This document shows positions 1 to 31,229 of a stretch of 64,000 nucleotides of DNA, one piece after another. This DNA is from Psammoneis japonica (lineage: Eukaryota): positions 1 to 64,000 of the forward strand of contig QPGO01000019.1 of NCBI GenBank assembly GCA_008632985.1, read 5' to 3'. The notes under the pieces are model-generated. The model was not told the origin of the DNA. It saw nothing but the letters and a program-made list of their open reading frames with translations, and searched no databases. A program made the position numbers and the translations under genes. How positions within the stretch are numbered: the first letter of the stretch is position 1; each line of letters begins with the position of its first letter.

Positions 1-251
1 ATTTGGTGCGCGCGAAGCATCGCGCGCTGTTTAGTTTACCGTGCACAGTTTTGTGTGCTTTAGTTCCGCGCGTTCACGCGCGATGTAGTTTGCTTTCGAG
101 CCACAAGGCTCACAAGAAAAACAGTAGCCCGATTGTGCCGACTTGCACGTCTTTCGGCTCCTGCAACGGTCTCTGAGCGGAGACTCATCTGCTATTTAGA
201 CAGCAGAAGGAGATTGTTTGAATTCTTGCCATTTGCCTTCATTTTCTGTCA
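1..251 (+). repeat. 5' LTR of copia copy 1 (partial)
   Basis: Matches ~6820-7078; ends in CTGTCA. Confidence 0.95.
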
Positions 252-265
252 GATTAACAGTCTTG
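252..265 (+). promoter_or_regulatory. Putative primer-binding site complementary to a tRNA-Asn(GTT) anticodon arm
   Basis: GATTAACAGTCTTG abuts the LTR; its reverse complement is CAAGA-CT-GTT-AA-TC (stem, loop with GTT anticodon, first two 3' stem bases). Confidence 0.6.
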
Positions 266-1190
266 CTCATTGTCAACCCATTGAGCAACCGCCATCGTCG
301 TCGTTGATTTACCAACGACGCTATTTTAATTCTACGTGGACCTCCGTATATATTCTACATACATCGGCAAGTCTACGCGCATTCAATACCAGGGCATCGG
401 CAGGAAGTTAACGTCACCGTCAAGTCTCCTTACCGCTGGATATCTGGATTGATTATACTACCTTTGATCGCTGAAGACATACATTCAACGGTCACATCCA
501 AGTCTATCCTTGATCCTCATCCCTTGATATACCTATTCATCGGTTAACGGTCAAGAACCCTACATATTCAAAGATCTTCGTCGCTGAAGACATGTGTATA
601 TATACATATCTTCACGGCCAAGAACCTGTACCCACTCTTCGGACTGCGGTTTTGCCACCACTCTACAAGCACACCGAGTCCATTGTACCTGATCTACCCC
701 GGACTACTGGTGCTCTACAGTTCTACTAGGTCCACGAGGACGACTGTGAGAGCAAGCAGCCGTGATTACAGCCTGCGTTGGGGCGAGGGTGCTTTCCCGC
801 GTTTGTTCGTTCGTCCACAGCGCCTGGCGCCTGCGTCAACTGGCCAGCCTGATCGGGAAATCCAACCGACATAAAATAAGAACGGTTCGGGGGTCTTGTC
901 CACCTCTGGTCAGCTTGCCTGCAGGGGTTTGCAACCCGCTGCTCCGCTCGTAAGCAACCCAAAGCGCCACCAGCTGCGGGTTCGGACGTGCCGGCACAAC
1001 TCTACGGACCGGATGGGAAGTTTAGCACTTGACAACGAACGGGATGACAAAGCCCGGCAACTTCTGATTTTAAGATAGTTCAAGATTTCAAGTCAAGTCC
1101 ATTTCAAGTCAAGTCTGTTCTCACCCAAGTTTCGAGTCCACCTTCGCTTCCCAACCAGAATTGATTGTCCTGACACCATTTTTGTCTGCC

Positions 1191-4100
1191 ATGGTTCTCA
1201 CTCGTCAGCAACAAACCGATGGTTTCGAGCACGTGGTTGGAACCGTGCTTGCCCAAGGTGCTGGGAGTCCTCTTCGTTTGGCTTTGGCCCAAGACGGCAT
1301 GGACTCATGTCAGGAACTGTTCACGTTCACACCGTCCCAAATCGACTCGCTTGAGTGCGACAACGGCACTGATGTGGTCCCTTTGCCCCGTGGTCACAAG
1401 AACATGTTAGCAGCACCAGTCAGTCTGTACATTGTCAAAGCACACAAAGGTCTTGACGTTGCCAACGACTCCTCTTTGTTCACGCATGACGAGTTCCTTG
1501 CCTGCCGCCTCAGCCCCGACTGCATGTCTTCTGTGTCCATCGGCAGCTCACCCCTTGCACCTCCACATGTCACCAACCCGACCAAGGCACGCGACCCGGT
1601 GCGGGACTTCAAGCGAGGCATCAAGCGTGATCCCACCGCTTTCACGGCTCTCAAATCCGACAAGCAGTGGCACACTTGGCACACCTCACTTGTGGCACAA
1701 GCCCGTGCCCAAGACGTCGAGTGCATTCTAGACTCGTCGTACAAACCGACCAGCCCCGAAGACAAACTGCTCTTTGCTGAACAGCAAAAGTGCATGTTCG
1801 CCGTCTTCGAACGCATCCTTCTCACCGACAAGGGCAAGGCTCTCATTCGCGAAAATGTGGGGTCTTCTGACGCACAGACCGTCTGCCGCTCCTTGTCTGA
1901 GCACGCGCTTGCCTCCACCCGCGCATCTGTCGAGTCCTCCACCCTGCTCACGTACCTCACCACCGCGCGTCTTGGTGATGGCACTTGGAAAGGTCCGACC
2001 CACGGGTTCATCCTTCATTGGCAAGATCAGTTGCGCAAGTGCGAGGCACTCATCCCGGCCAGTGACCACTTCTCTGAAGGACAGAAGCGCGTCATGCTCG
2101 AGAATGCCGTGCACCCTGTCGAGGAACTCCGTGCTGTCAAGAACCAAGCTGATCAGCATCGTACGCAGAGTGGCAAGAGCCTCACATACGATCAATGCTG
2201 TGGCTTGCTCCTCTCCGCGGCAGCTCAGTGCGACAGCACGTTTCAACCCAAGACGACACCTCGAGCTCCCCGACGCGCCACATGCGCACACGACGTCTGC
2301 TCCGAGGAACCGTCCGACGATGTGTTCTACGACATTGACAGCGACGTTGACGTCCTTCAAGCCAATGCTGCCGCACCCGCGGTCCCAGCCTCACCGGTGT
2401 CCAATGGAGACGTCTCCCTCCCGACCACCAACGGCTCTGGGATTCGTTGCCCGATTCCTCCAAGGCGATCATCCTTGAGCATTCTCGTCCACCTCCCCGC
2501 AACCCGCGAGCCAGCAACTGCCATGAGTCTGTTACGGCCAACCTTCACGACCAACGCCTTGGGAGTGACGGTGATGTCACTTGTCCAACACGACTCCTGC
2601 TGACTCTGGTGACTCCGCCCACATGTGGACGCCACTTCGGATAATCCCATCCTGGCGCACCTCACCAAGCGCAAGCCACTGCCACCCGGTGATCTGCAAC
2701 GTCTGTTGTCTCCTAACCAAGCCCCCAATGCCAGTCGACCGGGGCCATCCGCCGCTTCCTCTACCCCGCCAGCTTCTGCAGATAACACAGAACTTGGTGG
2801 CCGCACTTGCCGCCGCGTTAACAACCACAATGTCATTTGCTCTGCCTCTGCTCATCGATCCACACGCACTGGCGCTCTAGTCGATCGTGGGGCCAACGGC
2901 AGCATTGCTGGCGACGACGTTCGCGTCATTGCACGCACCTCTCGCCAAGTCGACGTTCAGGGCATTGACGATCATCAATTGGTGGACATCCCCATTGTCA
3001 CCGCTGGTGCCGTTGTTGAGACCCAGCGTGGTCCCGTCATCGCCATCCTCCATCAGCGCGCATGCACGGGAAAGGGCAAGACCATCCATTCCTGCGGCCA
3101 GCTTGAATGGTGCAAACAGGATGTCAACGATCGCTCTGTCAAGGTGCCCAACGGCTTGCAACGCATTGCCACTCCTGATGGCTGTGTCATCCCCATTGAC
3201 ATCAAGGCTGGCCTGCCTCATGTTGCCATGCGACCTTACACTGACGCCGAATGGGACACCCTGCCCCATGTCATCCTCACCGGTGATGACACATGGGACC
3301 CTTCCGTCCTCGATCACTCTGTCACTGACGACGACCAGTGGTGCGACGCGATCTCTGACCTGCAGGACGATCCCACTGCCAACCTGTTTGACGAATGCGG
3401 CAACTGCCGTCATCGTGTCGTTGTCAACGAGACCATCTTGTCCGCTTCCTTGTCTGCCGATCACGCGTCCGCCCTCGATGATCACCTCATTCCGAACGAC
3501 GACGTGTTCTGCGAGTGTCATCTGCATGCGATTGCCCCCCAGGGCGATGACGTTCCACCTCCGGAGCGCACTGTACAGCCCAAGGACCCCCCCTTCGAGT
3601 CTCTTCGGCCTCACTTTGGCTTCCTACCTGCCGATGCGGTCCGTCGTACTTTTGACTGCACCACGCAGTACGCCCGCATGCCCGCCGGACACACCTTCGC
3701 AAGGCCTCAAATCACCCAACCCCGCCCTTAATGTGCACCGCCGCAACGAGCCTGTCGCCACTGACACCGTTTGTGCCGACACCCCGGCCGTCGACTCTGG
3801 TTGCACCAGCGCCCAACTGTTTGTTGGCACCGAGTCTACCGTCACTGACGTCTGCGGCACTGAGACGGACAAAGAGTTTGTCAACACACTCGAGGATCAG
3901 ATCCGTGCACGTGGTGCCCCGTCCAAACTCATTGGCGACCGTGCTCAAGTTGAGATCAGCAACAAAGTGCTCGGGATCCTGCGCGCCCTCTTCATCTCTA
4001 GCTGGCAAAGTGAGCCTCACCAGCAACACCAAAACTTTGCCGAGCGTCGACACCAGACCGTGAAGCGCATGGCGAACACTGTCATGGATCGTTTTGGTTC

Positions 4101-6854
4101 GCCCGCCCACACATGGCTGCTGGCGCTCATGTACGTGTGCTTCACACTCAACCACACAGCGTCCCCACGTCTCCACTGGCGCACGCCCCTCGAGACTCTC
4201 ACTGGCTCCACCCCGGACATCAGCCCATTGCTTCGCTTTCACTGGTGGGAACCCGTGTGCTTCCACCTCGATGACTCCGATTGGCCGTCTGAATCCCGTG
4301 AGTTGCGTGGACGCTTCGTTGGCATTGCTGAGCACGTCGGCCACCAGATGACCTTCAAGATTCTATCTGACGAGACTCAGAAGATCCTCCACCGGTCCAA
4401 CGTCCGCTCCGCTACCCCCGATCCTGCCGTTCGAAACCTGCGTCTTGATCCTCCTGATGGGGAGCCACCTGAACCCATCATCAAATCTCGCCATGACGAC
4501 AACCCCGTCGACTCTCCTGATGGGGAGATCAGGACACCCAAGATGCCAGTTTTCGATCCGCAAGACATCATTGGACGTACCTTCCTCATGCAGCCACAAG
4601 AGGACGGACAACGCCACAGAGCTCGCATCGTCAAGGCCGTCGAAGACCACGAATGGAAAGTGAACGGCAATCCCGAGCTCACTAAGTTCGTCTGCTCTGT
4701 CAACAATGACGAATACGAGGAAGTCCTTGCCTGCAATGACATCATGAATCACATTGAGCAAGAAGACGAAGACACCACTGTTTGGAAATTTCGACGCATC
4801 GTGTCACACGAAGGACCTCTGAAGCCTCACGACCCAACCTGGAAAGGCTCCAGCTACAACATCATGCTTGAATGGGAAAGTGGGGAGATCACGTCCGAGC
4901 CTCTTGCCATCATCGCCAAGGACGACCCCGTCACCTGTGCCATCTATGCACGAGAGAACGGACTCCTCGACACGGATGGCTGGAAGCGGTTCCGCACCAT
5001 CGCGAGGCGCCAAAAGAAGCCATTTCGCATGGCCAACCAAGCCAAGCTTCGCTCCTTCCGCACTGCACCCCGCTACAAGCATGGATGCGAAGTTCCCCGC
5101 AACTACAAACACGCCATGTCACTAGACGAACGCAACGGCAACCGCAAGTGGGGAGACGCAACCAATCTCGAGATGGACCAACTCGACGAATACGAAGTCT
5201 TCCATGACTGCGGGCCCTTCAAGTCTTCCACTCCTCCTGCGGGACACAAGAAGATCCGAGTGCACCTAGTGTGCGATGTGAAACACGACGGTCGCCACAA
5301 GGCACGACTCGTAGCCGACGGGCACCTCACGGACGTACCTGTCGACAGTGTCCACTCCGGAGTAGTCTCCCTCCGTGGCCTTCGGCTGATGATTTTCCTG
5401 GCCGAACTCAACGAGTTGGAGACATGGGCCACCGACATTGGCAATGCCTACCTTGAAGCCACCACCAAGGAGAAGCTTTACATTGTAGCTGGACCCGAGT
5501 TCGGCAAACTCGAAGGACACATCCTTGTCATCCACAAGGCACTGTGTGGACTGCGCAGCTCCGGTCTCCGCTGGCACGAGCGCTTCGCCGACTGCCTGCG
5601 AGCTGAAGGCTTCTTCCCCTGCCGCGCCGAACCCGACATTTGGATGCGCAGGAACGGCGACCACTATGAATGCATTGCCGTTTATGTGGATGACCTCGCC
5701 ATTGCCATGAAGGACCCTCAATCTTTCGTCGACACTCTCACGGAAAAGCACAAGTTCAAGCTCAAGGGTGCGGGACCCATTGAGTTCCATCTGGGTTGCG
5801 ACTTTTCCCGGGAACCCGACGGAACCTTGTGCCTGTCTCCGCGCAAGTACATCGAGCGCATGGTCGACAGCTGTGCCCAACTGTTTGGGGAGAAACCTGC
5901 CACCAACGCCCTGTCACCTCTAGAGAAGGGTGACCACCCCGAACTGGACACTTCCGAACTGCTGGGACCCGATGGCATTCACAAGTTCCAGTCTCTTGTT
6001 GGTTCACTCCAATGGGCAGTGTCCTTGGTCGAATTGACATTGCCACGGCCGTCATGTCACTCTCTAGCTTCTGAGCTGCGCCCCGTCAAGGCCACTTGGA
6101 TCGTGCCAAATGCGTCTGTGGGTGCCTCTCCAAGATGCGACACGGTGCTCTCCGCGTTCGTACGGAAGAGCCCGACCATTCGGATCTCCCTGCTCCGGCC
6201 TGTGAATGGATGCATTCCGTGTATGGTGAAGCAGAAGAGATGATCCCGAAGGACGCTCCACCGCCCCTTGGCAAGTTCGTCACTGCCACCCACTGCGTCG
6301 ATGCAAACTTGCACCATTGCATGCTCACCGGACGCTCTGTCATGGGAATGCTCCACTTCCTCAACAAATTCCCGGCTGATTGGTTCTCTAAGAAACAAGC
6401 CACCGTGGAGACTGCGACCTACGGGTCTGAATTTGTTGCCGCAAGGACTTGTGTTGAGCAGATTGTCGACCTGCGCATCACCCTGTGCCACCTTGGCGTC
6501 CCGATCCGCAACGTTAGCCACATGTTCGGTGACAACAAGTCGGTTGTAGACAGTGCCACCATCCCGCACTCCAAGTTACACAAGCGACACACCGCACTGT
6601 CGTTCCACCGTGTGCGTGAGGCAATTGCCTCTGGTTGCCTTGAGTTCCACTTCATCGAAGGCTCCCGCAACCCTGCTGACATTCTCAGCAAGCATTGGGG
6701 TCACTCCCAAATCTGGGACCTTCTCCGCCCCCTCATGTTCTGGAACTTCATTCCATCCGAAGTCGAATCTGTTTCTGTGGCTCCTCAAGCAAACTGGGGA
6801 GTGACAGGATTTGAACAGGATTTGGGTGCGCGCGAAGTATCGCGCGCTGTTTAG
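1191..6854 (+). pseudogene. Copia gag-pol polyprotein, copy 1, several frameshifts
   Basis: ORF pieces 1161-2603, 2625-3731, 2887-6243 and 6096-6854 are collinear with the single-frame copy 2. Confidence 0.92.
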
Positions 6855-7078
6855 TTTGCCGTGCACAGTTTTGTGTGCTTTAGTTCCGCGCGTTCACGCA
6901 CGATGTAGTTTGCTTTCGAGCCACAAGGCTCACAAGAACAACAACAGTGGCCCGATTGTGCCGACTTGCACGTCTTTCGGCTCCTGTGACGGTCTCTGAG
7001 CGGAGACTCATCTGCCATTTAGACAGCAGTAAGGAGTTGTTGTTTGAATTCTTGCCATTTGCCTTCATTTTTCTGTCA
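6802..7078 (+). repeat. 3' LTR of copia copy 1 (277 bp)
   Basis: TGACAG...CTGTCA termini; follows the polypurine tract. Confidence 0.96.
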
Positions 7079-8277
7079 ACAGCATTCTTGGTTCATCAAG
7101 CGATGCGTAAGAAGCATCTCAGTGCACAATGAAGTGTTGCGAGAACACTCGGTTCACAATGTTGAGTGTGAAGTCATTGATCACCGTGGTTGTGATGATG
7201 GGGTGGCTTTGTCACTGAAGCATGGAAAGGAACAATTAAAGCCAGTGAAGGTTGGAAAGACTGAACATGTGAGTTGATCCGATTCGAGCTGTTCTGCTCT
7301 CACTTCTGTTTCCATCTCTCTCATTGCTCCTTGTCCTTTTCAGTCTTTCAATTTGGATGTGATTCATGTTGGACTTGCAGCGAGACAGGCTGTTGGTCTT
7401 GGTTGCGGATCATGCACGTAAAGTCTGTAAGAATGGTGCCGTGCATGGGTGCGCATTCTTGAGTGTCAAGTGTCTGTCTGTCATCATGATCGCACAGTGG
7501 AATGCGCGATTTTTGCAGAGCATTCACTCATGAATGTCGCTGCATCTTCGCAATTCAAAAATCCCGCCGCCACCAAAGATTGCGTTGTTTCTACGCCCAT
7601 TGGTGCGGACCCAATCATGGTGTGTTTTTCTACAAGATCTTCTGCGGCATCCATTTGGCCAACACAACAAGACGCACTGCACAACACCACCATTGTCATC
7701 GCTCTCAACACCCTCTTGAACCTCTCCAGGGGATGTTGACACTCAACATCCACATCAGTGTTGTCTTCGTTACAATCTTCTGCTTCGTGGCAGCTCGTCT
7801 CGACCCAAGTTGCTTTCCTGCATTCCATGAGTGAGGCGTCACTGCCCCACCAAAGAACCGCAATTCCGCGGATGTGTCAATCCATGCAACGAGTGACGTG
7901 CCAGTTGTTGGTGCTGCAAGTGTGGCTGCATGTGCATTGCATTGCATCATGCTGTCATGGCAGACTCATGATGCATCTCGCATCATCATCTCCATTGTAC
8001 ATTTGAATCAGTCCATTGCCGGCAACACCTTCCACCACTGCACAAAAGCCCCTGCCACTGTTGCGTGTGGATCCGCAAGACAAGCAGCAACACAAAAGGT
8101 CCCACCACAATGACGGTTGCTTGAGCCATGTCCTCGAGTGCCGAGATTTCATCTGACCATGGTGGTGGCATCAATGGCCTCGTAGAACCTCAGCCGAACA
8201 AGCTCGTGACGCAGAACAAATCCATCCAAGCTCTGCGCATGTCAAGGAAATGTGTCGGCAAGTTGGAGGAGGACACA

Positions 8278-8634
8278 ATGACAGAGTCCAGGTAGAGTGG
8301 TTCCCTTTTGAGCAACGAGGATGATGATGACATTGAAAGCGAAAAGCTGTTGATGGATGAGGACTTTGTGTTTGACTTTGAAGACAACTTTGATGCCACG
8401 GATGCCACGGATTCGTCAAGGTGATTGGATGGATGCAATGAGAGTGACATTGCAGAGGCGGATTCAATGACAGAGTCCAGGCAGAGTGGTTCCCTTTTGA
8501 GCAACGAAGATGATGATGACATTGAAAGCGAAAAGCTGTTGACAGATGAGGACTTTGTACTTGACTTTGAAGACAACTTTGATGCCACGGATTCGTCAAG
8601 GCAATTGGATGGTTGCAATGAGAATGACATTGCT
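8278..8634 (+). repeat. Tandem duplication, period 189 bp, encoding an acidic peptide
   Basis: ATGACAGAGTCCAGG...GACATTGC at 8278 and 8467; period is a multiple of 3. Confidence 0.85.
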
Positions 8635-9033
8635 GAACTTGTCGTGAAGTTCAGAGATGCTGCCGACAAAAGCAAAGCTGCACATGAACTTTTCAGCCTT
8701 GAAGAAGAACCACTCCAAGACACAACATCAAGGAAACCAACAAAGAAAAGGAAACGAGCAAGAGGTCATCAAGACGCCAAATCGAAGTTGAAGAAGCGTC
8801 GTCGGCGCACTGGGAAACCTGCTGCATCAAAAGCTCCCCCCAAAAAGGTGAGTTTGTTTGCACTCAAATTATGATGATCTTGGTTTACAACTGGCGCTCA
8901 CTTTTGGCTTCTCCAGTTGTCGCAAATGACTCCATCTAGGTTGAAGACAAAGGCCAATCAACAACAAGAAATGCTCGTGAATGTCGAGTTGCCACCAAGT
9001 CTCAACCTGGAGGCATCTCCAAGAGAAGCGATC

Positions 9034-9309
9034 TGACAGAAATTGAAGGCAAATGGCAAGAATTCAAACAATGACTCCTTGCTGCTGTCTAAACAGCAGA
9101 TGAGTCTCCGCTCAGAGACCGCCACAGGAGCCGAAAGACGTGCAAGTCGGTACAATCGGGCTGCTGTTGTCATTCTTGTGAGCCTTGTGGCTCGAAAGCA
9201 AACTACATCGTCCTCGAACGCGCGGAACTGAAGCACACAAAACTGTGCGCGGCAAACTAAACAGCGCGCGACATTTCACGCGCACCCAAATCCTGCTCAA
9301 ATCCTGTCA
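9034..9309 (-). repeat. 3' LTR of copia copy 2 (276 bp)
   Basis: TGACAG/CTGTCA termini; adjacent CTCCCCAG is the reverse complement of the PPT. Confidence 0.96.
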
Positions 9310-15847: not shown

Positions 15848-16123
15848 TGACAGAAATTGAAGGCAAATGGCAAGAATTCAAACAACAACTCCTTGCTGCT
15901 GTCTAAACAGCAGATGAGTCTCCGCTCAGAGACCGTCACAGGAGCCGAAAGACGTGTGAGTCGGTGCAATCGGGCCACTGTTGTCATTCTTGTGAGCCTT
16001 GTGGCTCGAAAGCAAACTGCGTCGTGCGCGAATGCGCGGAACTAAAGCACACAAAACTGTGCGCGGTGAACTGAACAGCGCGCGACATTTCGCGTGCACC
16101 CAAATCCTGTTCAAATCCTGTCA
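15848..16123 (-). repeat. 5' LTR of copia copy 2
   Basis: Matches 9034-9309; followed on the minus strand by the PBS variant GATTGACAGTCTTG. Confidence 0.96.
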
Positions 16124-17269
16124 CGATCACCAAAGTTTCGGAGCTGGTGGAGAAGGTTGATTCGTGCCAACAAGCAAAGGAGCTGGCAACTCAAATTGAT
16201 GCCTGCATCATCCTGTTTGCCCATGCAAGAGGGCACATGGTTCACCCTTTGAATCTTGGCAATGGGACATCAGACGACACAAAGGGAATCGCGCTGCTGC
16301 ACTGCGCACCCGACAATTGCAGTTCTTGTCTCTCAATGCTGGACAAAGCTGTTGGGAATGGCTCATCGTGCCTCAGCTTCATCTCCAACTCCAGTTGTTG
16401 CATCAATGCATGCAAGTGCATTTGGGCGGCAATGCATTGCAAGGAATGGATCGAAGATGCCAAGGAATTGGCCAGGTTCATTTGTGCAGTTGACTTGAAT
16501 CCAGTTCTGGTGGAGAAGAAGAGCAAAAACCGACAGCACGATGAGTTTTGCAGGACAGTTGGATGGTCTAAAAAAGAATGGCATTGGTTGGCCGCATTGA
16601 GAATGGAACTGCGGGCAAAGGCAATTTGCCTTCGAGACCGAAAGGGTGGTGCACCACTCATTGCTTGTGGAGCCAACCCACGCAGAGCTCTCCAGTGGAT
16701 GAGCAAGTGTGATGCTGTCAAGATGCCTCACTGTGATTTCGAGACAAACGATGATCATGGCGTACGTTCCGTGCTTCATCCACAAGCATGGTTTGGTGCA
16801 TCCATTTGTGCAGAACTCCACGTGCTTGAGAATGTGTCGCAGAGGGAAATCAACGACTGCAATGCAAACTGTTTTTGTGGGAAGTTTCTTGAGCATCAAC
16901 ACAAGATGAAGAAGGCTGCGCTGTTCTCAAAACGTTTGCAAGCTGTGGGTGCAACCAAAGAGGATGCATGAGAGTGTGAGTTGGAGGCGAAGCTCATCAA
17001 AAGAAGGCAATGTCGGAGCTCATGTAAAAATTCAAAAAAAGCGTTTTGACAAGAAAGAACTCAGCTGCTGGTCAAGAAGCTTGTCAACACATGAGAGAAA
17101 TTTGTTTCAAGACATTGCACAAAGAATGAATTCGAAATGATCACCTCGAGTCGGAGACGTTCCATGGAATGATGCTGCATCAACACGCGTGTCGAATTCT
17201 CAGCGCAGAGTTAGGGGCTGGAACGGGCTTGACTCTTTGTCAACACAGAACGGCAATGAGGCTGTTGTG

Positions 17270-19830
17270 TCATGGAAAGGGTTGGCTCCAAAGACTCGAT
17301 GACATCTGCGCATGCAAGGAAGAGCACGGTGACAGTGAGCCGCCTTGCACTTGGATGCTGCTGTGTCGATTTGTCATCTAAACTCCCTTTTGTTTGCTTG
17401 TTGTGACTCCAGCTGCAATCAGCCACATGAAAGATCCGTCTCTCTACCGATGGATCCAGAAACAATGCAACAAAAAGGAGAATCTAAGCAAAATGAAGCA
17501 TCGAGAACTGGAAAAGCTAAATGGTGATTTGGGCGACTGCTCGCGACAGTGTGACACACCCAAGTCTTTTGAAGAATGACTCGAGGACATTTGTGTGTGC
17601 AAGGAAGAGCATGGTGATGGTGAGCAGAGCCGCTTGCGTGTCTCAATGAATGGAATCTATTTAGAATCTAACTCTTCGTTTGTGTGCTTGTTGTGTGTCT
17701 CGCTCGAGTCATCAAAGCCAAAGACAGGTCTCTCTACGAATGGATCCAGTGTCAATGCAACAACAAGGAGAATCTAAGCGAAGTGAAGCGTCAAGAACTT
17801 GAAAAGCCAACTGGTGATTTGGACAACTGCTCGCCACATCATGACACACCCAAGTCTTTTGAAGAATGACTCGAGGACATTCGTGCACACAAGGAAGAGC
17901 ACGGTGATGGTGAGCAGAGCCGCTTGCGTGTCTTGATGAACAGAATCTATTTGGAATCTAACTTTTCTTTTGTGTGCTTGTTGTGTGTCTAGCTCGAGTC
18001 AGCCAGACAAAAGACAGGTCTCTCTGCGGATGGATCTGGAAACAATGCAACAACAAGGAGAATCTAAGTGAAGTGAAGCGTCAAGAACTGGAAAAGCCAA
18101 CTGGTGATTTGGACGACTGCTCGCGACAGCATGACACACCCAAGTCTTTTGAAGAACGACTTGAGGACATTCATGTGCACAAGGAAGAGCACGGTGATGG
18201 TGAGCAGAGCTGCTTGCGTGTCTCAATGAATGGAATCTATTTAGAATCTAACTCTTCTTTTGTGTGCTTGTTGTGTGTCTGGCTCGAGTCAGCCAGACAA
18301 AAGACAGGTCTCTCTGTGGACGGATCCGGAAACAATGCAACAACAAGGAGAATCTAAGCGAAGTGAAGCGTCGAGAACTGGAAAAGCCAGTTGGTGATTT
18401 GGACGACTGCTCGCGACAGTGCGACACACCCAAGTCTTTTGAAGAATGACTCGAGGACATTCGTGCACACAAGGAAGAGCACGGTGATGGTGAGCAGAGC
18501 CGCTTGTGTGTCTCAATGAACAGAATCCATTTAGAATCTAACTCTTCTTTTGTGTGCTTGTTGTGTGTCTAGCTCGAGTCAGCCAGACAAAAGACAGGTC
18601 TCTCTGTGAATGGATCCGGCATCAATGCAACAACAAGGAGAATCTAAGCAAAGTGAAGCATTGAGAACTGGAAAAGCCAGTTGGTGATTTGGACGACTGC
18701 TCGCGACAGTGTGACACACCCAAGTCTTTTGAAGAACAACTCGAGGACATTCGTGTGTGCAAGGAAGAGCACGGTGATGGTGAGTGGAGCCGCTTGCGTG
18801 TCTCAATGAACAGAATCTATTTAGAATCTAACTCTTCTTTTGTGTGCTTGTTGTGTGTCTGGCTTGAATCATCCAGACAAAAGACAGGTCTCTCTGTGAA
18901 TGGATCCGGCATCAATGCAACAACAAGGAGAATCCAAGCAAAGTGAGGTGTTGAGAACTGGAAAAGCCAGTTGGTGATTTGGATGACTGCTCGCGACAGT
19001 GTGACACACCCAAGTCTTTTGAAGAACGACTCGAGGACATTCGTGCATGCAAGGAAGAGCATGGTGATGGTGAGCAGAGCCACTTGCGTGTCTCGATGAA
19101 CAGAATCTATTTAGAATCTAACTCTTCTTTTGTGTGCTTGTTGTGTGTCTAGCTTGAGTCAGCCAGACAAAAGACAGGTCTCTCTGTGGATGGATCTGGT
19201 GTCAATTTCAAGACAAGGAGAATCTTGGTGAAGAAAAGCGTCAAAAACTGGAAGAACTCATTGGTGATTTGGGCGACTGCCAGTGCTTCACATGCAACTC
19301 TTTTGAAGAACGACTCAAAGACATCCACGCATGCAAGGAAGAGCATGGCGGCAGTGAGTCGAGGCTTTTTTGTCTCTTGTTTTACAGAATCTATTTAGAA
19401 TCTAACTTTTCTTTTGTTTGCTTGTTGTGTGTCTAGCTCGAGTCAGTGAAGCCAAAGACAGGTCTCTCTACGAATGGATTCGGCATCAAGTTCAAGACAA
19501 GGACAACCTCAGTGAAGAAAAGCATTGAAAACCAGAAGAGCTGGTTGGTGATTTGGGTCACTGGTTGCGACAGCGTGAGTCACCCAAGTCTTTTAAAGAA
19601 TGACTGCAGGACATTCGTGCATGCAAGGAAGAGCACGGTGGTGGTGAGCAGAGCCGCTCACGTGTCTTGTTGAATGGAATCTGTTTAGAATCCAACTCTT
19701 TTTTTGTTTGCTTGTTGTGTGTCTAGCCATGGTCAGCTGCACGAAAGATCCGTCTCTCTACAAATGGATCCGGCGTCAACTTCGAGACAAGAAAAATCTA
19801 AACAAAAAACAGCGTCGAGAACCACAGGGA
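17270..19830 (+). repeat. Nine tandem ~290-bp units (83-bp intron + 207-bp exon) encoding helicase-associated (HA, PF03457-like) domains; pseudogenised
   Basis: AAGGAAGAGC at ~17316, 17601, 17891, 18181, 18471, 18761, 19051, ~19335, ~19625. Example intron 17910-17992 is GTGAG...CTAAC...TAG. Inferred spliced unit: FEERLEDIRAxKEEHGD/ARVSQTKDRSLxxWIxxQxNNKENLSEVKRxELEK. Confidence 0.85.
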
Positions 19831-20104
19831 CTCATTGGCAACTCGGAAGCCCAGCCCAGCTTGCCTCAGCCTCCTCCTCCTCCGCTTCCAGTCTGCACTC
19901 AGCTCCCAGGTCATGTGATTGCAGCACACCCGCGCTTGCTTCCGCCTCCTTTGCACCTCTCAGCGATTGCCGGTTCTCCACCCATTGTTCTTCCTTCTGC
20001 TTCCGCCCCTTCACTCGTTCTTGCTCTTAATCCCGCCATGAAGACAGCTGTTCAGCCCCAACAGCCTGTGCAGGTTGTGCATTCCTCCAACCCAGGGTTT
20101 GCAT

Positions 20105-20250
20105 GCCCTCCGCCACCACCACAAGTGCACCCGCTGCTGCCGCAAGTGCATCCGCCGCCACCACAAGTGTGTCCGCCGCCGCCACAAGTGCACCCGCCGC
20201 CACCGCAAGTGTGTCCACCACTGCATGTGTGTCCGCCACTGCAAGTGCAC
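20105..20250 (+). repeat. 21-bp minisatellite encoding PPPPQV(H/C)
   Basis: CCGCCGCCACCACAAGTG-NNN units. Confidence 0.8.
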
Positions 20251-20971
20251 TGTCACCCCTCCTCTTGGGGGGAAAGGAGGGAAAAGCATTGTACAGCAGG
20301 AAGAGAGGGTTGTGAAAATGTCAGACTTTTGTGACTGGCGACAGCTCCGTAGAAGTGATGCCAGCATGTCGCGTAGAAATGAGAAACGAACATCCTGTTT
20401 TTTTGACAGACTGCGGCTGGCGTCGCTTTGCTCGCACGACTTCTTGCGGTGATCTGATTCTAGAGACAGGTGATCAGTGGGGATGGGAGGACTTTGCTGG
20501 CGCAGTTGGTCCCTTTCCATTCCCAAGCTGGAACAGCATGGCCAGAGGGAGGGAGAGGTGGGAGCGCTTTTAGACTGTCCACTCGGCTTGCTGCCAAAGC
20601 TCTTCAGAAGAATGAGCAACAGCAGCTTGCTTCCAAATGCCAACTTGAATGTGTTCAATGTGGCAGATGCGGGGGGTGATTTCCCGGTGCGTCATCAATG
20701 GGCAATGAGGTCATCTCCCCTTGTTGGTCTTTACGAGGCCAGCGACTGGCGTCGCTTTGCTCGCACGACTTCTTGTGGTGATCTGATTCTAGAGACAGGC
20801 AATTGGCAGGGATGGGAGGACTTTGCTGGCACAGTTGGTCCCTTTCCATTCCCAAGCTGGAATGGTGTGGCCGTTCCGGCGCCACCCACGCACACTGGTG
20901 CAGGTGGTGGCGGTGCAATTGGGTGGGTGGGTGGGCCCGGCTGGAAGGCTGAGGCGCGGCCTGTGATGGAA

Positions 20972-22127
20972 TCACTGGTCGGCGGCAGCAAGGGGCACGT
21001 CGGCATTGGGGTGTAGGACAAATTGGCCGCCCGCCAACATGCAGGTTGCGAAATTGCACATGACGGGTTCTGCTTGTAAGTGGAGGTAACGGAGCATCTC
21101 GTCGGAGTGCCATCGGCCTAAGAGGCGGATCACGTCAGTGTCAACATGGGCACATAGGAGGGCCATGGCACCAGCCGTGCGCAAACAGCGAGCGGAGACA
21201 TCGGCGGGTGTGAAACCCAGCGTAGCGGGGCCGATTGCCAGAATTGCAGCACGCAGGATGCTGGTGATGTCGGCGGGAGAGACACGGCACCAGGTGTTGT
21301 CATGCAAGCACACACCAAGGGGCATGTCTGGTGTGGCACCAAAGGTGCGGAGATGTTTCACGCGACGGATGAGGGCGCGTGTCGGACAGAGGTCAGGGTG
21401 TCCGGATGGGCCAAGACCTGTCACTTCACCATGCACGCCATTCTTCTGTGTGGCAAAAAGTGAGCGTGCCAAAGGTGGCGGTGTCGAGGTGTTCATCGAT
21501 GCAGGTAAACAAATCGAGGCAAGCACCTCCCGCGGAGAGGCGAACGTCCCCCAACCGAAATGGAGTGGTGTCGGAAGGGGTGGCGGTGCATTCGCCTGGC
21601 CGCAGGAGGAAGAAAAAGGCCAAAGCAGTCATGTCTGTGATGGCTTGGGTGCCCGGATGGTTGGTCAGGGAAGCGGCATGGGCAATCCACAAGAGGACAG
21701 CGACGGGGACCGGTTTGACCCGGTCTGGCGGAGGATCCTCTTTCTTGTAGAAACGGATTTGGCAGCCAACGCTGAAATCCATGTTGCCTTGGAGTGTGTG
21801 CCGCGGGTCCAGGGACCCCATTGCAGCAAACGTTTGGCCAATTGACCGTAAGGCACCCTCAGCGGTGCGTGCGCGGACGGGATTGCCACGTGGGGCGATG
21901 GCACCTGTACGGAATCGGTGCACAAAAACTTGGAAAAAGATGACTGGGTCGTTGACGTCTTGCAAGAGAGGGTCGAGGGCCAAGTCGTTACAGAAACTTC
22001 GCCAGAGGTCCCAGTGGGCATTGCTGGAGCTGGCGGAAGAAGCGGCAACGCCGTGGGCAATGGCGTGTTGCACAGCGCCGAGATCACCTAGGAACGCAGC
22101 GCGGGTGGAGGGGTCCAAAGGCGCCAA
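20972..22127 (-). pseudogene. Tyrosine recombinase of the Ngaro element (frameshifted)
   Basis: FFFLLRPGE, SARCLRTAGAMALL and LLGRWHSDEMLRYLH motifs in ORFs 21426-22127 and 20972-21526. Confidence 0.9.
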
Positions 22128-24500
22128 GAGGGAGTCTGTGGGCAGTGAGTGTTAAAATGTTGCAAGAAGGAACAGTCAGACAATTGTTGCAAGCAAGAGG
22201 CGTCATCTGCAGCGGTGTTTGGTGGTCCCGGCAAGCAGTCGTGGAGAGACAGGTGGCAGTGGAAACGTTGGTGGTGACCTTGGTGTCGAAGGAGGGGTGC
22301 TGCGACCTTCGCAGTCGTGGTGGAGCCCTTGTGTTGACGAAAGAGAGTGCCGGTGTTGTCCGCACGGTCAAGCACTGTGCGCTCTCGAACGTCGAAACAG
22401 TCCACCGCTGCACAGGATTGCACAACACTGCCGACCAACTCCAAGTCGGTGTTGGCAATGGGGCCGCGGGGATTCTTAAAAGTGGACAGGCGGTCGGTGA
22501 CTGCTTGAGGGAAATGCATGCACCAGACGATGGGTCCGGCGTCATGTTGTGGTCTCCGACGGCAAGCAGTGGAGTGACGCAGCGTGGTGCTGCGTGCGAC
22601 CACTGACAGCGCAGGGAGAAGGACGCCACCTGCACCATGACCGGCTGCATCATGGCAGCCCGTGACAGTGGGCGACAGGGGGACAAGTTCTTGGATGCGG
22701 GTGGGGCGGAGATCGAGCCCGCAGCACAACAACCGAAAATCGTCCAACATGTCATGAAAGTTGCGGGCAAGACGAACTCGCCCGTCGGGTTTGGTGTGGA
22801 GCAAGGCTTCTTGACGTGTTCCAGCTCTAGGTGGGACCTCGTACTGCTGAACTGTGACACAATTATTTTTTGTCATCCGTGGCATGTTTCGCACGTACAT
22901 TTCTACGTGTTCTGTTGTAAAAAATTGTTCCACACTGCCTGTTTTGCGAAGCCAAAGGCTTTCTGTCATCTGCACTTGTGTCAACAAAAATGCACTGGGC
23001 ACATTCTTTAATGTCTAAAGAACACACCCGGGCATGCTGCAAAGAATGCACTTCAAGTGTGGAGGAGGAGATGCGTTCACAAAATTGCCTCTTTTTCTGT
23101 TGGCGATCATTCATGTGTCCATTGCTTGATGATTTTACTGCGGAGCTCGCACGTAGAATTCTGCGGGCCCAATGTCACAAAAAGTCCCACCTGGGACTGG
23201 AACCCGTCTCTTGGAGTTCGGAGAACAGATTGCGAGACCCGGGAATGCCGGGCGTGAGGGATCGCAGTTCGCCAAGAAGCTTGTGCAGGTCGGTGAGCAC
23301 TGCCCGCTTGCGGTGGCAGGGAAACTCTTTGTGCAGCGTGGTGCGGAGGCGCTCGCAGCGTCGCGGCGTAAGGCAGATGGTCATGGACAAAGTGTCAATG
23401 ATCCACCCTAGGACCTCCTTCTGCATTGACCAAGTGGCGTCGCCTTTGCGGAGCTTTTTGACTGAGATTGGCTCCTTGCGACTCGCGTGATCTCGGTCGT
23501 CGAGTGGACGAAATGCATCGTCAATGGCGTGCATGATTGTGTGATGCACGTTGCGCAGCGATTGTTTGGAGCCTTGGGCGGCGCCGACAAAGTCATCAAC
23601 GTAGACACCGGCGCGGTGGTGCACGAGGTGTGGATCCGGCATGTCTGGCACTGGGACAGCGATGGACGGATTCACGTCAGCTGTCAAGGCAAGGTTCGAG
23701 TGGGTGTTCCGGTGCCCGACGGTTGTGCACGAGCTGGCGATTTGCAATGTCGGCGACTGTCTTGGTCGCCGTGCCAAATGCCAGAGGTGAGTTGGACCAT
23801 CCCATGGGTGACCGAGTTGGCATGGCCACCAGGGGAGGTTCCCCAGGAAGGCGGGAAAAAACCACACCCAGTGTGGGTGCTTGCTCGGGTGCCAGCTGCA
23901 TGCGGCAGAAACCATCCGCTGGGTCAATCTTCATTGGATGGATGCGGCCCTTGTTTGGATTGGCAAGGAGAACGTGCCGAAGGATGCGGTCCAGCGTGCG
24001 CCCGAACTGCATGGATTCCATTGGCACGTTTGGCTGAGCAGAGGGATCAACACCGTAGAACGTGTGATCCACAATCGGTCGTGGTCTGCGTGCGTGTTGT
24101 GGGACAACGCTGACAGGACTCAGCCGTAGATTGGGTTCATTCTTGACGTTGTTGCATGGAACAACCACCCAGAAACCCTTGTCAACACAGTCAGACATGT
24201 CTTCGCACAAAAACTCAATGTGTTTGTAGGCGGACTTGTGTGGTCCTCGAGCGATGCTACCTTGGAGCTCAGCGTTGGACCATGGCTCGTCTGCAACAGT
24301 GACCGGCACCCCTCGACATTTGCAACCGGTGAGCACTCGGTGTGCTGCATGCTGTCGCATTGTCACCAATGGTCCCCAGTCACCTCTGCCACTGCGCAGA
24401 CGTGACAAGCAACTGAGGCCTCTAAGGCGCAACAATTTTGCATCGCGTGTAATTTGCTTGCCTGATTTGTCAGTCAGTGCTGATGCAGCCACATCCTGTC
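22088..24500 (-). pseudogene. Reverse transcriptase / RNase H of the Ngaro element, interrupted by a TIR element
   Basis: LRLSPVSVVPQ..RRPRPIVD, KIDPADGF, GVYVDDFVG, KEVLGWIIDT, RNase H-like DAAGHGAGG. Confidence 0.88.
22813..23208. mobile_element. 396-bp non-autonomous TIR element (MITE), 4-bp TSD TCTT
   Basis: TIR GACG(T/G)GTTCCAG....AGGTGGGAC; TCTT at 22809-22812 and 23209-23212; excision restores LFSELQE-ALLHTK. Confidence 0.92.
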
Positions 24501-24629
24501 CACGTGTTGTGGGGCGGAAGTTCTGTTTTCTAGACTCCACTTGTGGGGGTTGTGGATGCATGGGCTTGTGTGCCCGTGCGGGAAGTGGCTCTTGGTTCCA
24601 TGTCCCCGAGCAGGAACCATTGCCGATGA

Positions 24630-27300
24630 CCTGTTCGGTCTTCCAATGTTGCGCACCCCACATGAGAAGGTCGACCTGCTGGTGCTCCGTGTGGCTGTGA
24701 TGATGATCGGCGCGTGATCCGCAGTTGTTGTTGCACTGTCCGATGAAATGGCATGGGAGACAACGTGGTGCCCCTTGGGAATCCGTGGGCAAGGCGACAT
24801 TGTCACGGGTGCAGCACTGCTTGACGGTGCTCGAACGTGCATTGGGACGCTCCCGTGAGACCGTGAAGCGTTCGTCGTGCTGTTCGTTGTGGATGATGGA
24901 ATTGTCGCCAGGTGCATTGATGCGGTTTTGTCCTGGCTGTGGCTGCCCAGAAGTCTGCGAACGCGGTGTCGTGGGCGGTTGAAGGACAGACGTCGGTGGG
25001 TCGAGATGCCAACAGTGGGCGCCTTGTGCGGCCTCAGCCACCACTGGGAGCGGTTGAAATGGGACAGGGCTTTGTGAGTGCATTTGCGCCTGGAACCAAT
25101 GGCACAGCTTTGCCTGCGCGCAACGTTGCAGGTCCGCTGGCAACATCGGGTGCGACACCACTTGCACCGCCAAATGACGCGTTCCAGCCCCAGGTGGGAG
25201 CTCTCAGCACTGACATGTGACAACAACAATTTTTGTCATCCGTCGTGTGTTTTGCATGTAGCTTTCTACGTGTGACATTAAAAAAAAATTGTCCAGACTC
25301 GCTGTTTTGCGAAGCCCCAGACGTTTTATGCAACAAATTTGTGGAAACAACAATGTGCCAGTTACATTCTTCAATGTCTGAAGAATGTAACTGGCTGAGT
25401 AAAAAATGATGTGCTTCAATCATGTGCGAGTTTGTGCGTTCGCAAAATTGCCTCATTTTCTGTTGGCGATCATTGACACTTTAATTGCCGTGTGATTTTG
25501 CTGCGGAGCTCGCACGTAGAAGTCTACGGGCCCAATGTCACACGGATTCCCACCTGCGTCTGGAACGCGTCAAATCGTTCGCGCAGACATCCATTGACTG
25601 GCGCATGTGAGTCAACCACTGTGCCAGTGGATGTGCCACGCCAAAGGCTGCTAAGAGAACGATGCACAAACCATTGAAGGACTGCTGAACTGCCTGGATC
25701 GCAGTGGCCACCATGGCGTCGTCCGGGGCCTCCAACACACGCACACCCACCAAGGACGGTGTGCCATTGCCTCCATGAATCTGTTGACACATGGAGCTGC
25801 GACAGGCGGTCTGCTCGGCTTGCTCCAGTGCAGTGATGCCAAACAAGAAGGGGGTGATCCCCTGAGTTAATTCGTCCTTGTCATGCCCAGCAAAGTCGAC
25901 TTGGGTGAGTTTTGTGACCAGGTTCACGGTCACTGGCACGCTGAAGCACACGTGGTGTGCTTGACGTTGCTCGTCGATTGCATTTTGGATGGCAGCAATT
26001 CGGCCGGTCTTGGGAGAGGCTGCCAGTTGCGCCCAGAGTGGTGGCAGGTTGGCTTCATGATGCACCTGGCACAAATGCATGAGTTTGGCGACGCCAAACT
26101 CTCCGCAGAACTCCGTCGGTGTCTTGCCGCGCGATGCCGCCTGTTCCGCGTCTAAACGTTGTTGGCGCTGTTCTGCTGTTAAGCTCTCGATGGCCGTGAC
26201 CACTGGTTCGAACTGGCGCAGTTGCGGCAGTTGGCCTGCGTGGTGCGGAAGATCACGCTGCACCATCGTGTCAAAGAAACAAATGAGCACTTCGTTGGGT
26301 GGCTGCACCATCATTGGCCATGCTTGCGCTGCTTCGGATGTGTGTTGGTCCCATGCTGTCGCGCAACACGCCACCTTCAAAAAGTCCAGAAGTGGCCTGC
26401 ATTCATTGACCACATTGGCAGCTGTGACAGCCCCCAGTGCCCGGGTGAATGCTTGCTTCAGCATCAACGGCATTGAAAGCAAGAGATTGGCACATGCGAA
26501 TGGCGCCATCATGGTGTTCTGTGTCCTGACCTCAACCGCATCTGGGTCGTTCGGCTGCACTTGTGGGTGCAATCCTTCCGGGGTCGTAACAATGTGAGCT
26601 TGCAGCGCTGCGTCAGTCGGCACCCACGTGCCGTGTTGGGCCAGCTGAAAGGCATCGTCAGCAATCGGTGCAAGTTGGCATTGTCCCATCGTCAGGTTGC
26701 CTGCGAGCGCAAAGAATTGTCCGTCCCACGGTTGTGCTGGTCCCTGCCACCGTGATCGGGTGCTGGGTTGTGCGATGAAACACCTGCACAACTCCCGCGT
26801 CGTTGCCTCCTTGCACCCGGCAGTGCTGTGCCAGTGCCACAGGCAAATCGTGCGAAGAAGCTGCTCCAACACGGGTCCTCAGCACATCAGGATCACAGCG
26901 GGGTTGCCCTTGCAGTGGGACCATGAAGTCCTGCATGATTTCCGCACAGTTGCCGGCGCACGGATCCTTTGTGGCGTGCAAGCAGCAATCCCGACAGGTC
27001 CGGATTACTGCCGGTGGTGCTGGAACTCCCTGCCCCACAGGACCTGCTGGCGGCACGGGTGGTGCTTGAGGTGCCCGCTGTTGGGGAGCCCCTCCCGGGG
27101 CTTGTCCTCCCTGCGCTGCGGCAGGTTGTGCCGCTGCTCCTGGCACTGCCGGCGCCATGGGATGCACTGGTGCTGGCGGCACGTTCTGGGCGTTGTTGGC
27201 TGCGGGAATCAGTTGTTGGGGTTGTTGAGCCGCCGCAGCGGCATCCGGCGGCGGATTGTTTCCGACATTTCCGTCTTTTGGTGCATGACGTGTGACTGTC
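24630..27300 (-). pseudogene. Gag-like ORF1 of the Ngaro element with C-terminal Cys/His finger (limits approximate)
   Basis: ORF pieces 26658-27425, 25538-26872 and the 5' part of 23677-25173 (RCLPCHFIGQCNNNCGSRADH); located upstream of RT. Confidence 0.65.
25176..25571. mobile_element. 396-bp non-autonomous TIR element (same family), 4-bp TSD AAAT
   Basis: TIR GACGCGTTCCAG...CAGGTGGGA; AAAT at 25172-25175 and 25572-25575; excision restores LRERF-GGASG. Confidence 0.92.
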
Positions 27301-27812
27301 CTGCGAGCTTTGTGGGTGCAGCAGCGGATGGCATCCTCCGCCGAACACAATGGCGCTTTTAGACTATCTATTCGGCTTGCTGCTAAAGCTCTTCGGAAGA
27401 ATGAGCAACAGCAGCTCGCTTCCAAACGCCAACTTGAACGCGTTCAATGTGGTAGATGCGGGGGGTGATTTCCCGGTGCGTCATCAACGGGTAATGAGGT
27501 CATCTCCCCTTGTCGGTCTTTACGAGGCCAGTTATAATAAATAAGAACGCGCGCACCAGAACCAAGAACCAAACCGGTCACCCACATGTTTTGATGACTT
27601 GGTCAACAGCTTTCTACCCGAAAGGATCGTCTGGAATGGAAAATAGGAGTAGCAAGTCTCCATTCTGTAGTGGAAAAGTAGTGCCTCCGCAGTACCGACT
27701 GGCATTATACGGCGAGTGGAGGGAATGGAAGCGAAAAGCGAAGTAGTATATATGGTACACTCGCGTGTAGTAGTTACATCACATTTCACATATAAGTGTT
27801 TAATTTGAAACC

Positions 27813-30842: not shown

Positions 30843-31229
30843 GTTGCTCGGTTGGTGCCTCAAGGTTTTCGATGGACACTTTGTGGCAAGCAAAAGAAGA
30901 ATTGACGGCGGCAAAAAGTGACTGTGGTGCGAGGAATGAACGAAAAGTGGAGCGGATTTCATAAGACTGCGAATCTTTGTGCCCTCCCGTTGTTTCTACG
31001 TGACTCCCCGGTACTAAAACAAAGATTTATCACAATAGGAACAACGTCAATAAATGATGTCATTCGTTAAATAATTTTTCGTCCTCCCTAAAATGGGTTA
31101 AATGATTTCGACAGATTCGGGATTTAGCTATTGCCCTGAGGGTTACGATATTTTTTTTTCCTTGTCGAGGATTTGTCTTGCGCGGTTATCATGTTCGTCG
31201 TGCCACCTCAGGTTACGGCTCGAGCTCAA

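Follow-up and report, generated by a model that had tools for sequence, protein, structure and literature searches.

Hypermutation of TpA to TpG and CpA in discrete domains of a 64 kb stretch of nuclear DNA from the pennate diatom Psammoneis japonica

The closest described process is that of the Rhizarian alga Bigelowiella natans, in which two integrated viral regions acquired ~6e-7 mutations per site per generation in mutation-accumulation lines (Mettrop et al., bioRxiv 10.64898/2026.01.13.699255, April 2026). In the accessible text of that preprint the changes are almost exclusively A→G/T→C, all at TpA, and these de novo changes occurred at about 1000 times background and only in some lines. 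The same text reports 124 TpA-poor, CpA- and TpG-rich clusters in the B. natans genome, enriched for reverse-transcriptase and DDE domains, and proposes an ADAT2-like DNA adenine deaminase; its accessible part does not mention diatoms. Before this preprint, specific erasure of TpA from selected DNA was not known as a natural process. Here, a 64,000 nt stretch of the P. japonica assembly (GCA_008632985.1, contig QPGO01000019.1, positions 1–64,000; hereafter the window) is described in which TpA has been converted to TpG or CpA throughout defined domains. The window is nuclear DNA, with a repeat cluster over its first 27.5 kb and ordinary genes from position 27813. The cluster includes two copies of a copia-type long terminal repeat (LTR) retrotransposon (copies 1 and 2), a satellite and a third repetitive element (element 3), and further depleted blocks lie among the genes (Table 1).

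The direction of change was established by polarisation against intact relatives of the copia element. Fifty-eight intact, full-length homologs, 60–72 % identical over the queried region (residues 560–1118 of ORF 2887–6243), were aligned, and both copies were mapped onto them codon by codon. At the 40 columns with Tyr in at least 80 % of the 58 homologs, copy 1 has kept Tyr at 15 and carries Cys at 15, His at 6 and other residues at 4, while copy 2, aligned at 39 columns and unaligned at 1, has Tyr at 5, Cys at 22, His at 8 and other residues at 4. Control residues were kept at 126–127 of 133 positions, or ~95 % (Phe 29/30, His 28/29, Cys 6/6, Asn 20/21 and 19/21, Trp 22/24, Gln 22/23). The difference between Tyr lost to Cys or His and controls changed is large in both copies (copy 2, 30/39 vs 7/133, Fisher p 1.5e-18, computed as 30/40; copy 1, 21/40 vs 6/133, Fisher p 3e-11). 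An earlier sequence-only reading of this stretch had described Tyr codons turned to Cys or His through the repeat block, and its examples hold. The reverse transcriptase motif expected as KALYGL reads KALCGL in copy 1 (AAG GCA CTG TGT GGA CTG, 5536–5553) and KALHGL in copy 2 (AAG GCC CTG CAT GGA CTG, 10576–10559, minus strand), a second motif reads VCDVK (TGC) in copy 1 and VHDVK (CAC) in copy 2, and in the leader gtatatatacatatc at 596–610 of copy 1 corresponds to gcacatgtgcacatc in copy 2. Its proposed direction, the reverse of repeat-induced point mutation (RIP), is likewise borne out, since conserved Tyr was lost and the control residues were kept.

The dinucleotide spectrum between the copies gives the same picture at the level of single sites. 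The alignment of copies 1 and 2 covers 7080 positions and has 455 differences, 396 of them transitions, and 330 of the 455 fall into the classes TA↔TG/CA, CA-versus-TG or CG↔TG/CA. There are 92 mismatches of TA against TG/CA, with the TA in copy 1 for 84; CA in one copy opposite TG in the other accounts for 53 dinucleotides, or 106 mismatches, and CG against TG/CA for 132. Where copy 1 has TA, copy 2 has TG at 48 sites, CA at 36, TA at 28 and another state at 3. The first ~1040 bases of copy 1 are nearly unmutated, with observed/expected ratios (O/E) of 0.83 for TpA and 1.10 for CpG. Relative to this near-pristine stretch (columns 1–1040), A>G has occurred at 45 of 102 TpA sites, 3 of 124 ApA sites and 1 of 122 GpA sites, with C>T at 10 of 141 CpG sites. 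An A within TpA is about 20–50 times likelier to be changed than other A's; the excess of TpA over other A contexts, for which a polarised spectrum had been suggested as a check, is therefore large. Double changes of TA to CG are rare (2/79 Tyr codon states). TpA→TpG/CpA is thus the direction of mutation, as an A→G change on either strand that is specific to TpA.

Base composition shows how far the process has gone. TpA O/E is 0.33 over copy 1 as a whole (0.83 in bases 1–1000 and 0.23 in 1001–7100), 0.11 in copy 2 and 0.19 in element 3, or 0.13 in the latter without two inserts resembling miniature inverted-repeat transposable elements (MITEs). The spacers are as TA-poor as the elements, with 14 TA against 129 expected in 7100–9020 (O/E 0.11) and 4 against 81 expected in 16124–17366 (O/E 0.05). 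In the satellite, TpA O/E is 0.22 and CpG O/E 0.66; its monomers mix CG/TG/CA and TA/TG/CA states at the same columns, mostly of the CpG type with few of the TA type, which supports depletion and carries little information on polarity. The blocks among the genes are poorer still. Positions 31500–35000 hold 9 TA against 234 expected and 35 CG against 200 expected, with TG and CA O/E of 1.6–2.1; 49400–50900 holds 3 TA against 101 expected and 15 CG against 85 expected; and 62200–64000 holds 3 TA against 106 expected and 35 CG against 118 expected. Across elements, satellite, spacers and blocks, TpA O/E ranges from 0.00 to 0.33, and in the repeat regions TpG and CpA O/E is 1.3–1.7. The gene part of the window, as had been claimed for the neighbouring genes, is normal in this respect: TpA and CpG O/E are 0.56 and 1.01 in open reading frames (ORFs) and 0.59 and 1.01 in intergenic spacers.

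Related elements elsewhere do not share this composition. In 80 related metagenome copia loci, the best 80 of 393 confirmed loci from a scan in which one of the two patterns contained Tyr, TpA O/E is 0.50–1.00 with a median of 0.71, and their mean GC content is 47.7 %, against 56–57 % in the elements of the window. The copy 2 polyprotein contains 0.5 % Tyr, 3.5 % Cys and 5.3 % His, compared with means of 4.0 %, 1.0 % and 3.6 % in 120 homologous proteins, in which Tyr spans 3.3–5 %. P0001–P0003 and P0012, located on Mb-scale contigs, were considered as possible unmutated members of the family and rejected; P0001 is only 46–50 % identical and belongs to another family. The exchange of Tyr for Cys and His, the rise in GC and the disappearance of TAA and TAG are side effects of TpA→TpG/CpA. 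In six frames, TAA/TAG stops number 5.2 per kb in 1001–27300 against 16.1 per kb in 35300–49200, with TGA at 19.3 and 19.2, respectively. Since TpA loss removes these stops, long ORFs have opened on both strands of the repeat cluster, where 49 ORFs of at least 150 aa are found. Likewise, an ORF at 50675–51403 (242 aa, no domain), mostly inside a TA-free block, is probably spurious.

Several observations date the changes after integration and separate them between copies. At 12 of the conserved Tyr sites changed in both copies the outcome agrees, and at 8 one copy has TG and the other CA, where ~11.6 and 8.4 are expected if the changes were independent; they arose independently in each copy. 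TA sites differ between the two LTRs of copy 2, and among the four copia LTRs several columns have TA in three and CA or TG in the fourth. In element 3 the flanking repeats differ at 13 of 179 positions, and at 12 of these 13 TA (5) or CG (7) survives in the outer repeat, with a gene 280 bp away, and stands against TG/CA in the inner one; the reverse was never seen. As LTRs are identical at insertion and now differ, and the element 3 repeats do likewise, the process acts after integration.

The depleted sequence is organised in domains. Their edges are sharp, within ~100–200 bp, and TpA loss and CpG loss end at common edges. When the sequence is divided into 64 segments of 1 kb, TpA O/E rises with CpG O/E (r 0.65) and falls as TG+CA increases (r −0.85). 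The repeat-targeting that had been proposed holds only in part: repeats are depleted, yet so are the spacers, and the most depleted block of all has single-copy word depth in the reads (at 90 % likeness; read copy number was measured for 20001–36000), while two stretches that do belong to repeats, the outer flanking repeat of element 3 and the first ~1 kb of copy 1, have escaped. The pattern therefore argues for targeting of domains rather than of repetition, and the depletion of satellite and spacer DNA, which is not of retroelement origin, shows that the process is not specific to retroelements. The old depleted blocks may themselves once have been repeats. Confinement to silent DNA, as first suggested, agrees with the contrast between depleted elements and blocks and the normal gene part across sharp edges. 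The depleted domains are probably silent and methylated, as their CpG decay suggests, and the coupling to CpG-decay domains points to targeting by chromatin or methylation state and not by sequence homology. A chromatin-domain-targeted, TpA-specific DNA mutator, its targeting included, is given a probability of about 0.75.

The TA sites changed do not form strand-coordinated tracts. TG and CA outcomes along copy 2 fall into 47 runs, against 42.2 ± 4.5 in shuffles, and palindromic NTAN contexts yielded 11 TG and 18 CA, favouring neither strand. A search of copy 2 for strand-coordinated clustering, which a processive single-strand deaminase would leave, found none; with TG and CA randomly interspersed and the palindromic contexts balanced, there is neither strand coordination nor transcription bias, in line with the earlier claim that both strands are affected. 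The immediate flank does matter. In the whole alignment of the two copies (1–7110 vs 9011–16130), A>G at T-A-N occurred at 40 of 79 TAC, 19 of 41 TAT, 14 of 42 TAA and 11 of 62 TAG sites (chi-square p = 0.0005), and the excess of Cys over His at former Tyr codons follows from this rule. Read from the pyrimidine side, as NTA, the counts are G 40/79 (51 %), A 19/41 (46 %), T 14/42 (33 %) and C 11/62 (18 %). CpG decay by NCG gives A 47/468 (10.0 %), G 39/485 (8.0 %), T 33/526 (6.3 %) and C 13/465 (2.8 %). TpA and CpG decay thus follow a matching rule, the pyrimidine being changed most after a purine and least after C.

Taken together, these features show a mutational process at the level of DNA. 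In silent domains, TpA is converted to TpG or CpA after integration, site by site, until TpA is essentially gone, and CpG in the same domains decays to TpG/CpA, as is usual for methylated cytosine. As both decays end at the same edges with the same products, TG/CA is their common sink. The lesion is presumed to be enzymatic, its specificity and rate lying far beyond spontaneous chemistry. An adenine deaminase of the cytidine deaminase (CDA) fold, similar to TadA or ADAT2 and recruited to silenced DNA, may convert adenine to hypoxanthine at 5′-TA-3′, which replication would then fix as G. Once one such change has been made, the partner A would lie in CpA and be immune; the rarity of TA→CG doubles is explained if the first change destroys the target on both strands. 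The flank preference, with TAC highest, counts in favour of this deaminase, and may echo the UACG loop in the RNA on which bacterial TadA acts. Additionally, ADAT2 enzymes are capable of deaminating A as well as C in DNA, according to the part of the source available (PMC10354150). The deaminase lesion as described is a committed guess and the leading candidate for the chemistry, held at somewhat less than even odds. Common domain edges, a common product and a common flank rule also hint at one system, and it is conceivable, though we consider it unlikely, that a single chromatin-guided system edits both TpA and (methyl)CpG to TpG/CpA, possibly through a dual A/C deaminase of the ADAT2/TadA fold, as an ancient RIP-like defence common to diatoms and chlorarachniophytes and possibly to the whole of the SAR group (Stramenopiles, Alveolates and Rhizaria).

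A number of points weigh against the chromatin-targeted mutator or parts of it. CpG depletion is the single line of evidence for the link to 5-methylcytosine (5mC). The ratios of TA to CpG loss are unequal between elements (~87 % vs ~15 % in copy 2; 5/7 vs 7/14 in the element 3 repeat), which argues against one simple shared clock. The MITE-like inserts in element 3 are only partly depleted, with a TpA O/E of 0.35 against 0.13 for their host, so that the process may be episodic or old. The signature is absent from the best 80 of the 393 metagenome loci and from the 120 homologous proteins; these sets favour intact elements, and the absence is weak evidence that the process may be rare among diatoms. 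The accurate-read contigs described below come from a single sample, possibly the assembly's own data, with the library type unrecorded, and cover 20001–36000 only. Finally, in the accessible portion of PMC10354150, the one DNA-editing ADAT2 whose context has been measured acts preferentially on A in GAA and on C in TCG, and not on TpA; a TCG preference was absent from CpG decay in the copia alignment, where ACG and GCG exceed TCG.

Among the alternatives, a thymine lesion fares best. A TET/JBP-type dioxygenase could oxidise T in TpA of silenced DNA to 5-hydroxymethyluracil (5hmU) or 5-formyluracil, which would mispair with G and give T→C. TpA is self-complementary, so T→C and A→G are inseparable from sequence, and RTA > TTA > CTA (R, purine) is an equally good reading of the flank rule. 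5hmU itself pairs mostly with A. Furthermore, T→C in TpC, equivalent to A>G in GpA, is not raised (1/122), a misfit for an enzyme acting on TA and TC. Work from the 1980s, as cited in the accessible text of PMC11071213, had 5hmU replacing T preferentially in TA and TC; the same 2024 paper, in the part available, finds no sequence preference of 5hmU in Breviolum. A dinoflagellate TET/JBP homolog does make 5hmU that is enriched in repeats and linked to transposon silencing, according to the portion of PMC11572971 available. On balance the thymine lesion is doubtful, though it deserves to be kept in view as the main competitor to adenine deamination.

A sequencing artefact, with TA in the real DNA and a modified base of silenced DNA called as G or C, is very unlikely. 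The check available is a set of contigs from run X1 (word depth ~57) covering 20001–36000, with the copia copies outside it; it was the only run with this stretch, of which X2 and X3 contain next to nothing, and its provenance, given above, is what leaves room for the artefact. Compared with 32166–36000, these contigs show 13 substitutions and 6 gaps in 3835 nt (99.5 % identity), compared with 31678–32083 no differences, and compared with the gene at 27503–31137 4 differences in 3635 nt (99.9 %). The TG/CA states are kept in 32166–36000, which, as far as contigs can show, answers the amplified short-read check suggested by the sequence-only reading, and because contigs of accurate reads reproduce the TA-free block, its TA-free state stands. 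In addition, the outcome at a given site is fixed but varies from copy to copy and between the LTRs of one element, and the old blocks are fully converted, which fits inherited mutation. A base read as G by all polymerases would also become G in the living cell, and CpG decay, a genuine mutation signature, has the same edges.

Differences between the contigs and the window are also about three times as frequent in the TA-free block as in the gene next to it. Among the 10 contig differences listed for 32166–36000, 3 are at CpG and 1 at TpA (34395: TA in the window, TG in the contig). Such differences may be allelic variation from the same processes. Between the element 3 paralogues in X1 and the window there are 309 transition places and 40 transversion places.

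Error-prone patch repair of the Pol-eta type in methylated DNA, converting WA to WG (W, A or T), had been put forward as a candidate and is highly improbable. Pol eta does make A→G errors at WA motifs, yet ApA is not raised (3/124, against 45/102 for TpA), which speaks against the candidate, and no clustered or strand-coordinated patches are present.

Hyperediting of retrotransposon RNA by an ADAR-like A-to-I enzyme, followed by reverse transcription into DNA, has very little left to recommend it. A 5′ U preference is typical of ADARs in the accessible text of the B. natans preprint (bioRxiv 10.64898/2026.01.13.699255), and the best-studied targets in the window are retroelements. Against this, LTR pairs differ at TA sites, the element 3 repeats differ in one direction only, and the satellite and spacers are changed as well, on both strands equally. 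TAG is moreover the least-changed triplet, although ADARs favour a 3′ G.

No better placed is the idea that there is no targeting at all, with TpA hypermutable genome-wide or lost through GC-biased gene conversion (gBGC) and TA retained in genes by selection. TpA is mildly under-represented everywhere, including the gene part. However, non-coding intergenic spacers keep their TpA at 0.59, the edges are sharp, parts of repeats at the edges are spared, and gBGC has no TpA specificity, unlike the A>G spectrum here. Mutation accumulation in Phaeodactylum tricornutum also shows a GC→AT bias with CG, CC and TG as the mutable contexts and no TpA effect, in the accessible part of PMC6604790. Finally, classical RIP-like C→T at CpA in copy 1, with TA derived, is symmetric with the unpolarised differences between TA and TG/CA but can be given practically no weight, because conserved Tyr was lost and not gained, TpA is depleted to 0.00–0.33 and not enriched, and the elements are GC-rich at 56–57 % vs 47.7 % in relatives.

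Table 1. Features of the 64 kb window
Feature	Position	Strand	Evidence and remarks
Copia-type LTR retrotransposon, copy 1	1–7078	+	RVT_2 domain, tblastn to homolog consensus, LTR alignment
Copy 1, 5′ LTR	1–251		Truncated by window start
Copy 1, 3′ LTR	6802–7078		
Spacer between copia copies	7079–9028		Without recognised domain
Copia copy 2, same family	9034–16123	−	94 % identical to copy 1
Copy 2, LTRs	9034–9309 and 15848–16123		
Copy 2, target-site duplication	9029–9033 and 16124–16128		GATCG, 5 bp
Spacer	16129–17365		
Satellite	17366–19860		~8.5 units of 290 bp
Element 3	20564–27531		6.6 kb flanked by 179-nt direct repeats (20564–20742, 27353–27531)
TA-free block	31250–35000		Complex sequence, not microsatellite; no domain found; single-copy word depth in reads
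Control, gene-rich part	35300–49200		Normal composition
Second TA/CG-poor block	49350–51080		
Third TA/CG-poor block	62100–64000		Continues past window end

Copies 1 and 2 are Ty1/copia LTR retrotransposons by their sequence features. RVT_2 is found in both (Pfam, E 4e-27 and 3e-25), and their LTRs are ~277 nt with TGACAG...CTGTCA ends; the 5′ flank of copy 1 is outside the window, and a target-site duplication is seen for copy 2. Separate integrase and RNase H domains were unconfirmed by Pfam in the copia copies. By tblastn against the consensus of the 58 homologs copy 1 is spread over five frames, i.e. it carries frameshifts. In copy 2 a single frame covers residues 1–1792 of the 1801-residue consensus, with 1847 codons, 0 frameshifts and 2 stops, both TGA.

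Element 3 is present in about 7–14 copies in the reads. Pfam searches of 20 stop-to-stop ORFs from element 3, the spacers and the TA-free blocks returned nothing credible, the best two having E 0.014 and lying below the cut-offs, and Rfam gave 0 matches over the whole window. The two MITE-like inserts of element 3 (22809–23208 and 25171–25570) are ~400 bp long with ~20-nt terminal inverted repeats. Their read-contig word depth is 14,000–81,000, against 57 for single-copy DNA, and contigs of other element 3 copies lack exactly the 400 nt of the inserts. This points to a very high-copy, recently mobile element.

In the gene part, a ubiquitin hydrolase gene has its best named relatives in Cylindrotheca, Synedra, Fistulifera, Nitzschia and Fragilaria, with at most 41 % identity. 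Four F5/8 type C (discoidin) genes, with 1–5 repeats each and all on the minus strand, form a local family (27813–30962, 35770–36630, 36747–38729 and 40066–41223) that is split by the TA-free block at 31.25–35.0 kb. A 1466-aa protein encoded at 53276–57676 (minus strand) combines Schlafen AlbA_2, a NACHT-like NTPase (TANC1-type lid, winged helix), WWE and ankyrin repeats, a domain layout of the STAND type that resembles those of innate-immunity sensors.

Its occurrence also in diatoms, distant from B. natans and ecologically dominant, would make TpA hypermutation a candidate for a widespread genome defence, a mirror image of fungal RIP, and no longer the curiosity of one alga. Beyond what the accessible preprint text describes for B. 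natans, the window adds action on integrated DNA, near-saturation, a flank rule, the lack of strand clustering and the coupling to CpG domains. The enzyme hunt is tractable by comparative genomics, through the deaminase, dioxygenase and DNMT4 genes of affected species compared with unaffected diatoms such as P. tricornutum, and a natural TpA-specific A:T→G:C DNA editor would be of interest to base editing. There are also practical consequences for annotation: gene finders will call long false ORFs in affected repeats, as TAA/TAG stops have been lost, and divergence-based dating of affected transposons will be badly wrong.

Among other known systems, 5mC-driven CpG decay affects the same domains, yields the same TpG/CpA products and accounts for 132 of the 455 mismatches but cannot remove TpA. 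Three metagenome copia loci (L002, L022 and L050) have CpG O/E of 0.23, 0.44 and 0.10 with TpA at 0.50–0.57; CpG has been lost there and TpA is normal, so methylation decay alone brings no TpA loss, and the statement of the sequence-only reading that 5mC deamination is insufficient is upheld by these relatives. Like RIP in Neurospora and other fungi, the process consists of heavy mutation by transitions only, destroys repeated or selfish DNA and has a link to silent chromatin. Unlike RIP, which makes C→T changes at CpA, creates TpA and leaves DNA AT-rich, it destroys TpA and raises GC, and homology dependence is unsupported, since spacers and a block of single-copy depth (copy number from 20001–36000) are changed. 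According to the accessible part of Hoguin et al. (PMC9998398), DNMT4, which may be related to the RIP factor RID, occurs in many diatoms but is missing from P. tricornutum.

Enzymes with the fold of tRNA adenosine deaminases (amphioxus BjADAT2/3, engineered TadA base editors) can convert A→I and C→U in DNA, which would explain A→G and possibly both decays; in the available text of PMC10354150, however, the contexts of BjADAT2, GAA and TCG, are on single-stranded or hairpin DNA and are not TpA. The 5hmU of dinoflagellates and kinetoplastids, made by TET-JBP enzymes, resembles the present case as a T modification that is enriched in repeats and linked to silencing, with the old TA/TC report (accessible parts of PMC11572971 and PMC11071213), yet it serves as an epigenetic mark and is not known to remove TpA from genomes, with no indication of its presence in diatoms. 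To our knowledge, there is no natural TpA-specific DNA adenine deaminase on record.

The likeness to B. natans is greatest. As in the accessible preprint text, A→G/T→C is confined to TpA and yields TpG and CpA, and it acts locally on foreign or selfish DNA, with TpA-poor stretches set against normal surroundings within the 64 kb window. The differences, as far as that text goes, are several. The host is a Stramenopile diatom and not a Rhizarian; the changes were measured de novo there and are deduced from fixed differences here; and the targets are LTR retrotransposons, a satellite, spacers and unannotated blocks. B. natans shows almost no GC→AT change, whereas CpG→TpG/CpA is abundant here (132/455 mismatches and 7/13 in the element 3 repeats) and is read as a second, co-targeted process; the coupling to CpG decay with common edges and the flank rule TAY > TAA > TAG (Y, pyrimidine) likewise go beyond the preprint text. 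The sequence-only reading, correct for the most part, had called the process undescribed, which no longer applies as a whole, the same signature being that of the 2026 preprint, but stands for diatoms, for which literature searches found no report of TpA hypermutation. With depletion far deeper than in the nucleocytoplasmic large DNA virus (NCLDV) region of B. natans (O/E 0.00–0.2 vs 0.45, the latter from the accessible text), the locus is best classed as the second case of B. natans-type TpA hypermutation, independent of the first, much deeper and new for diatoms.

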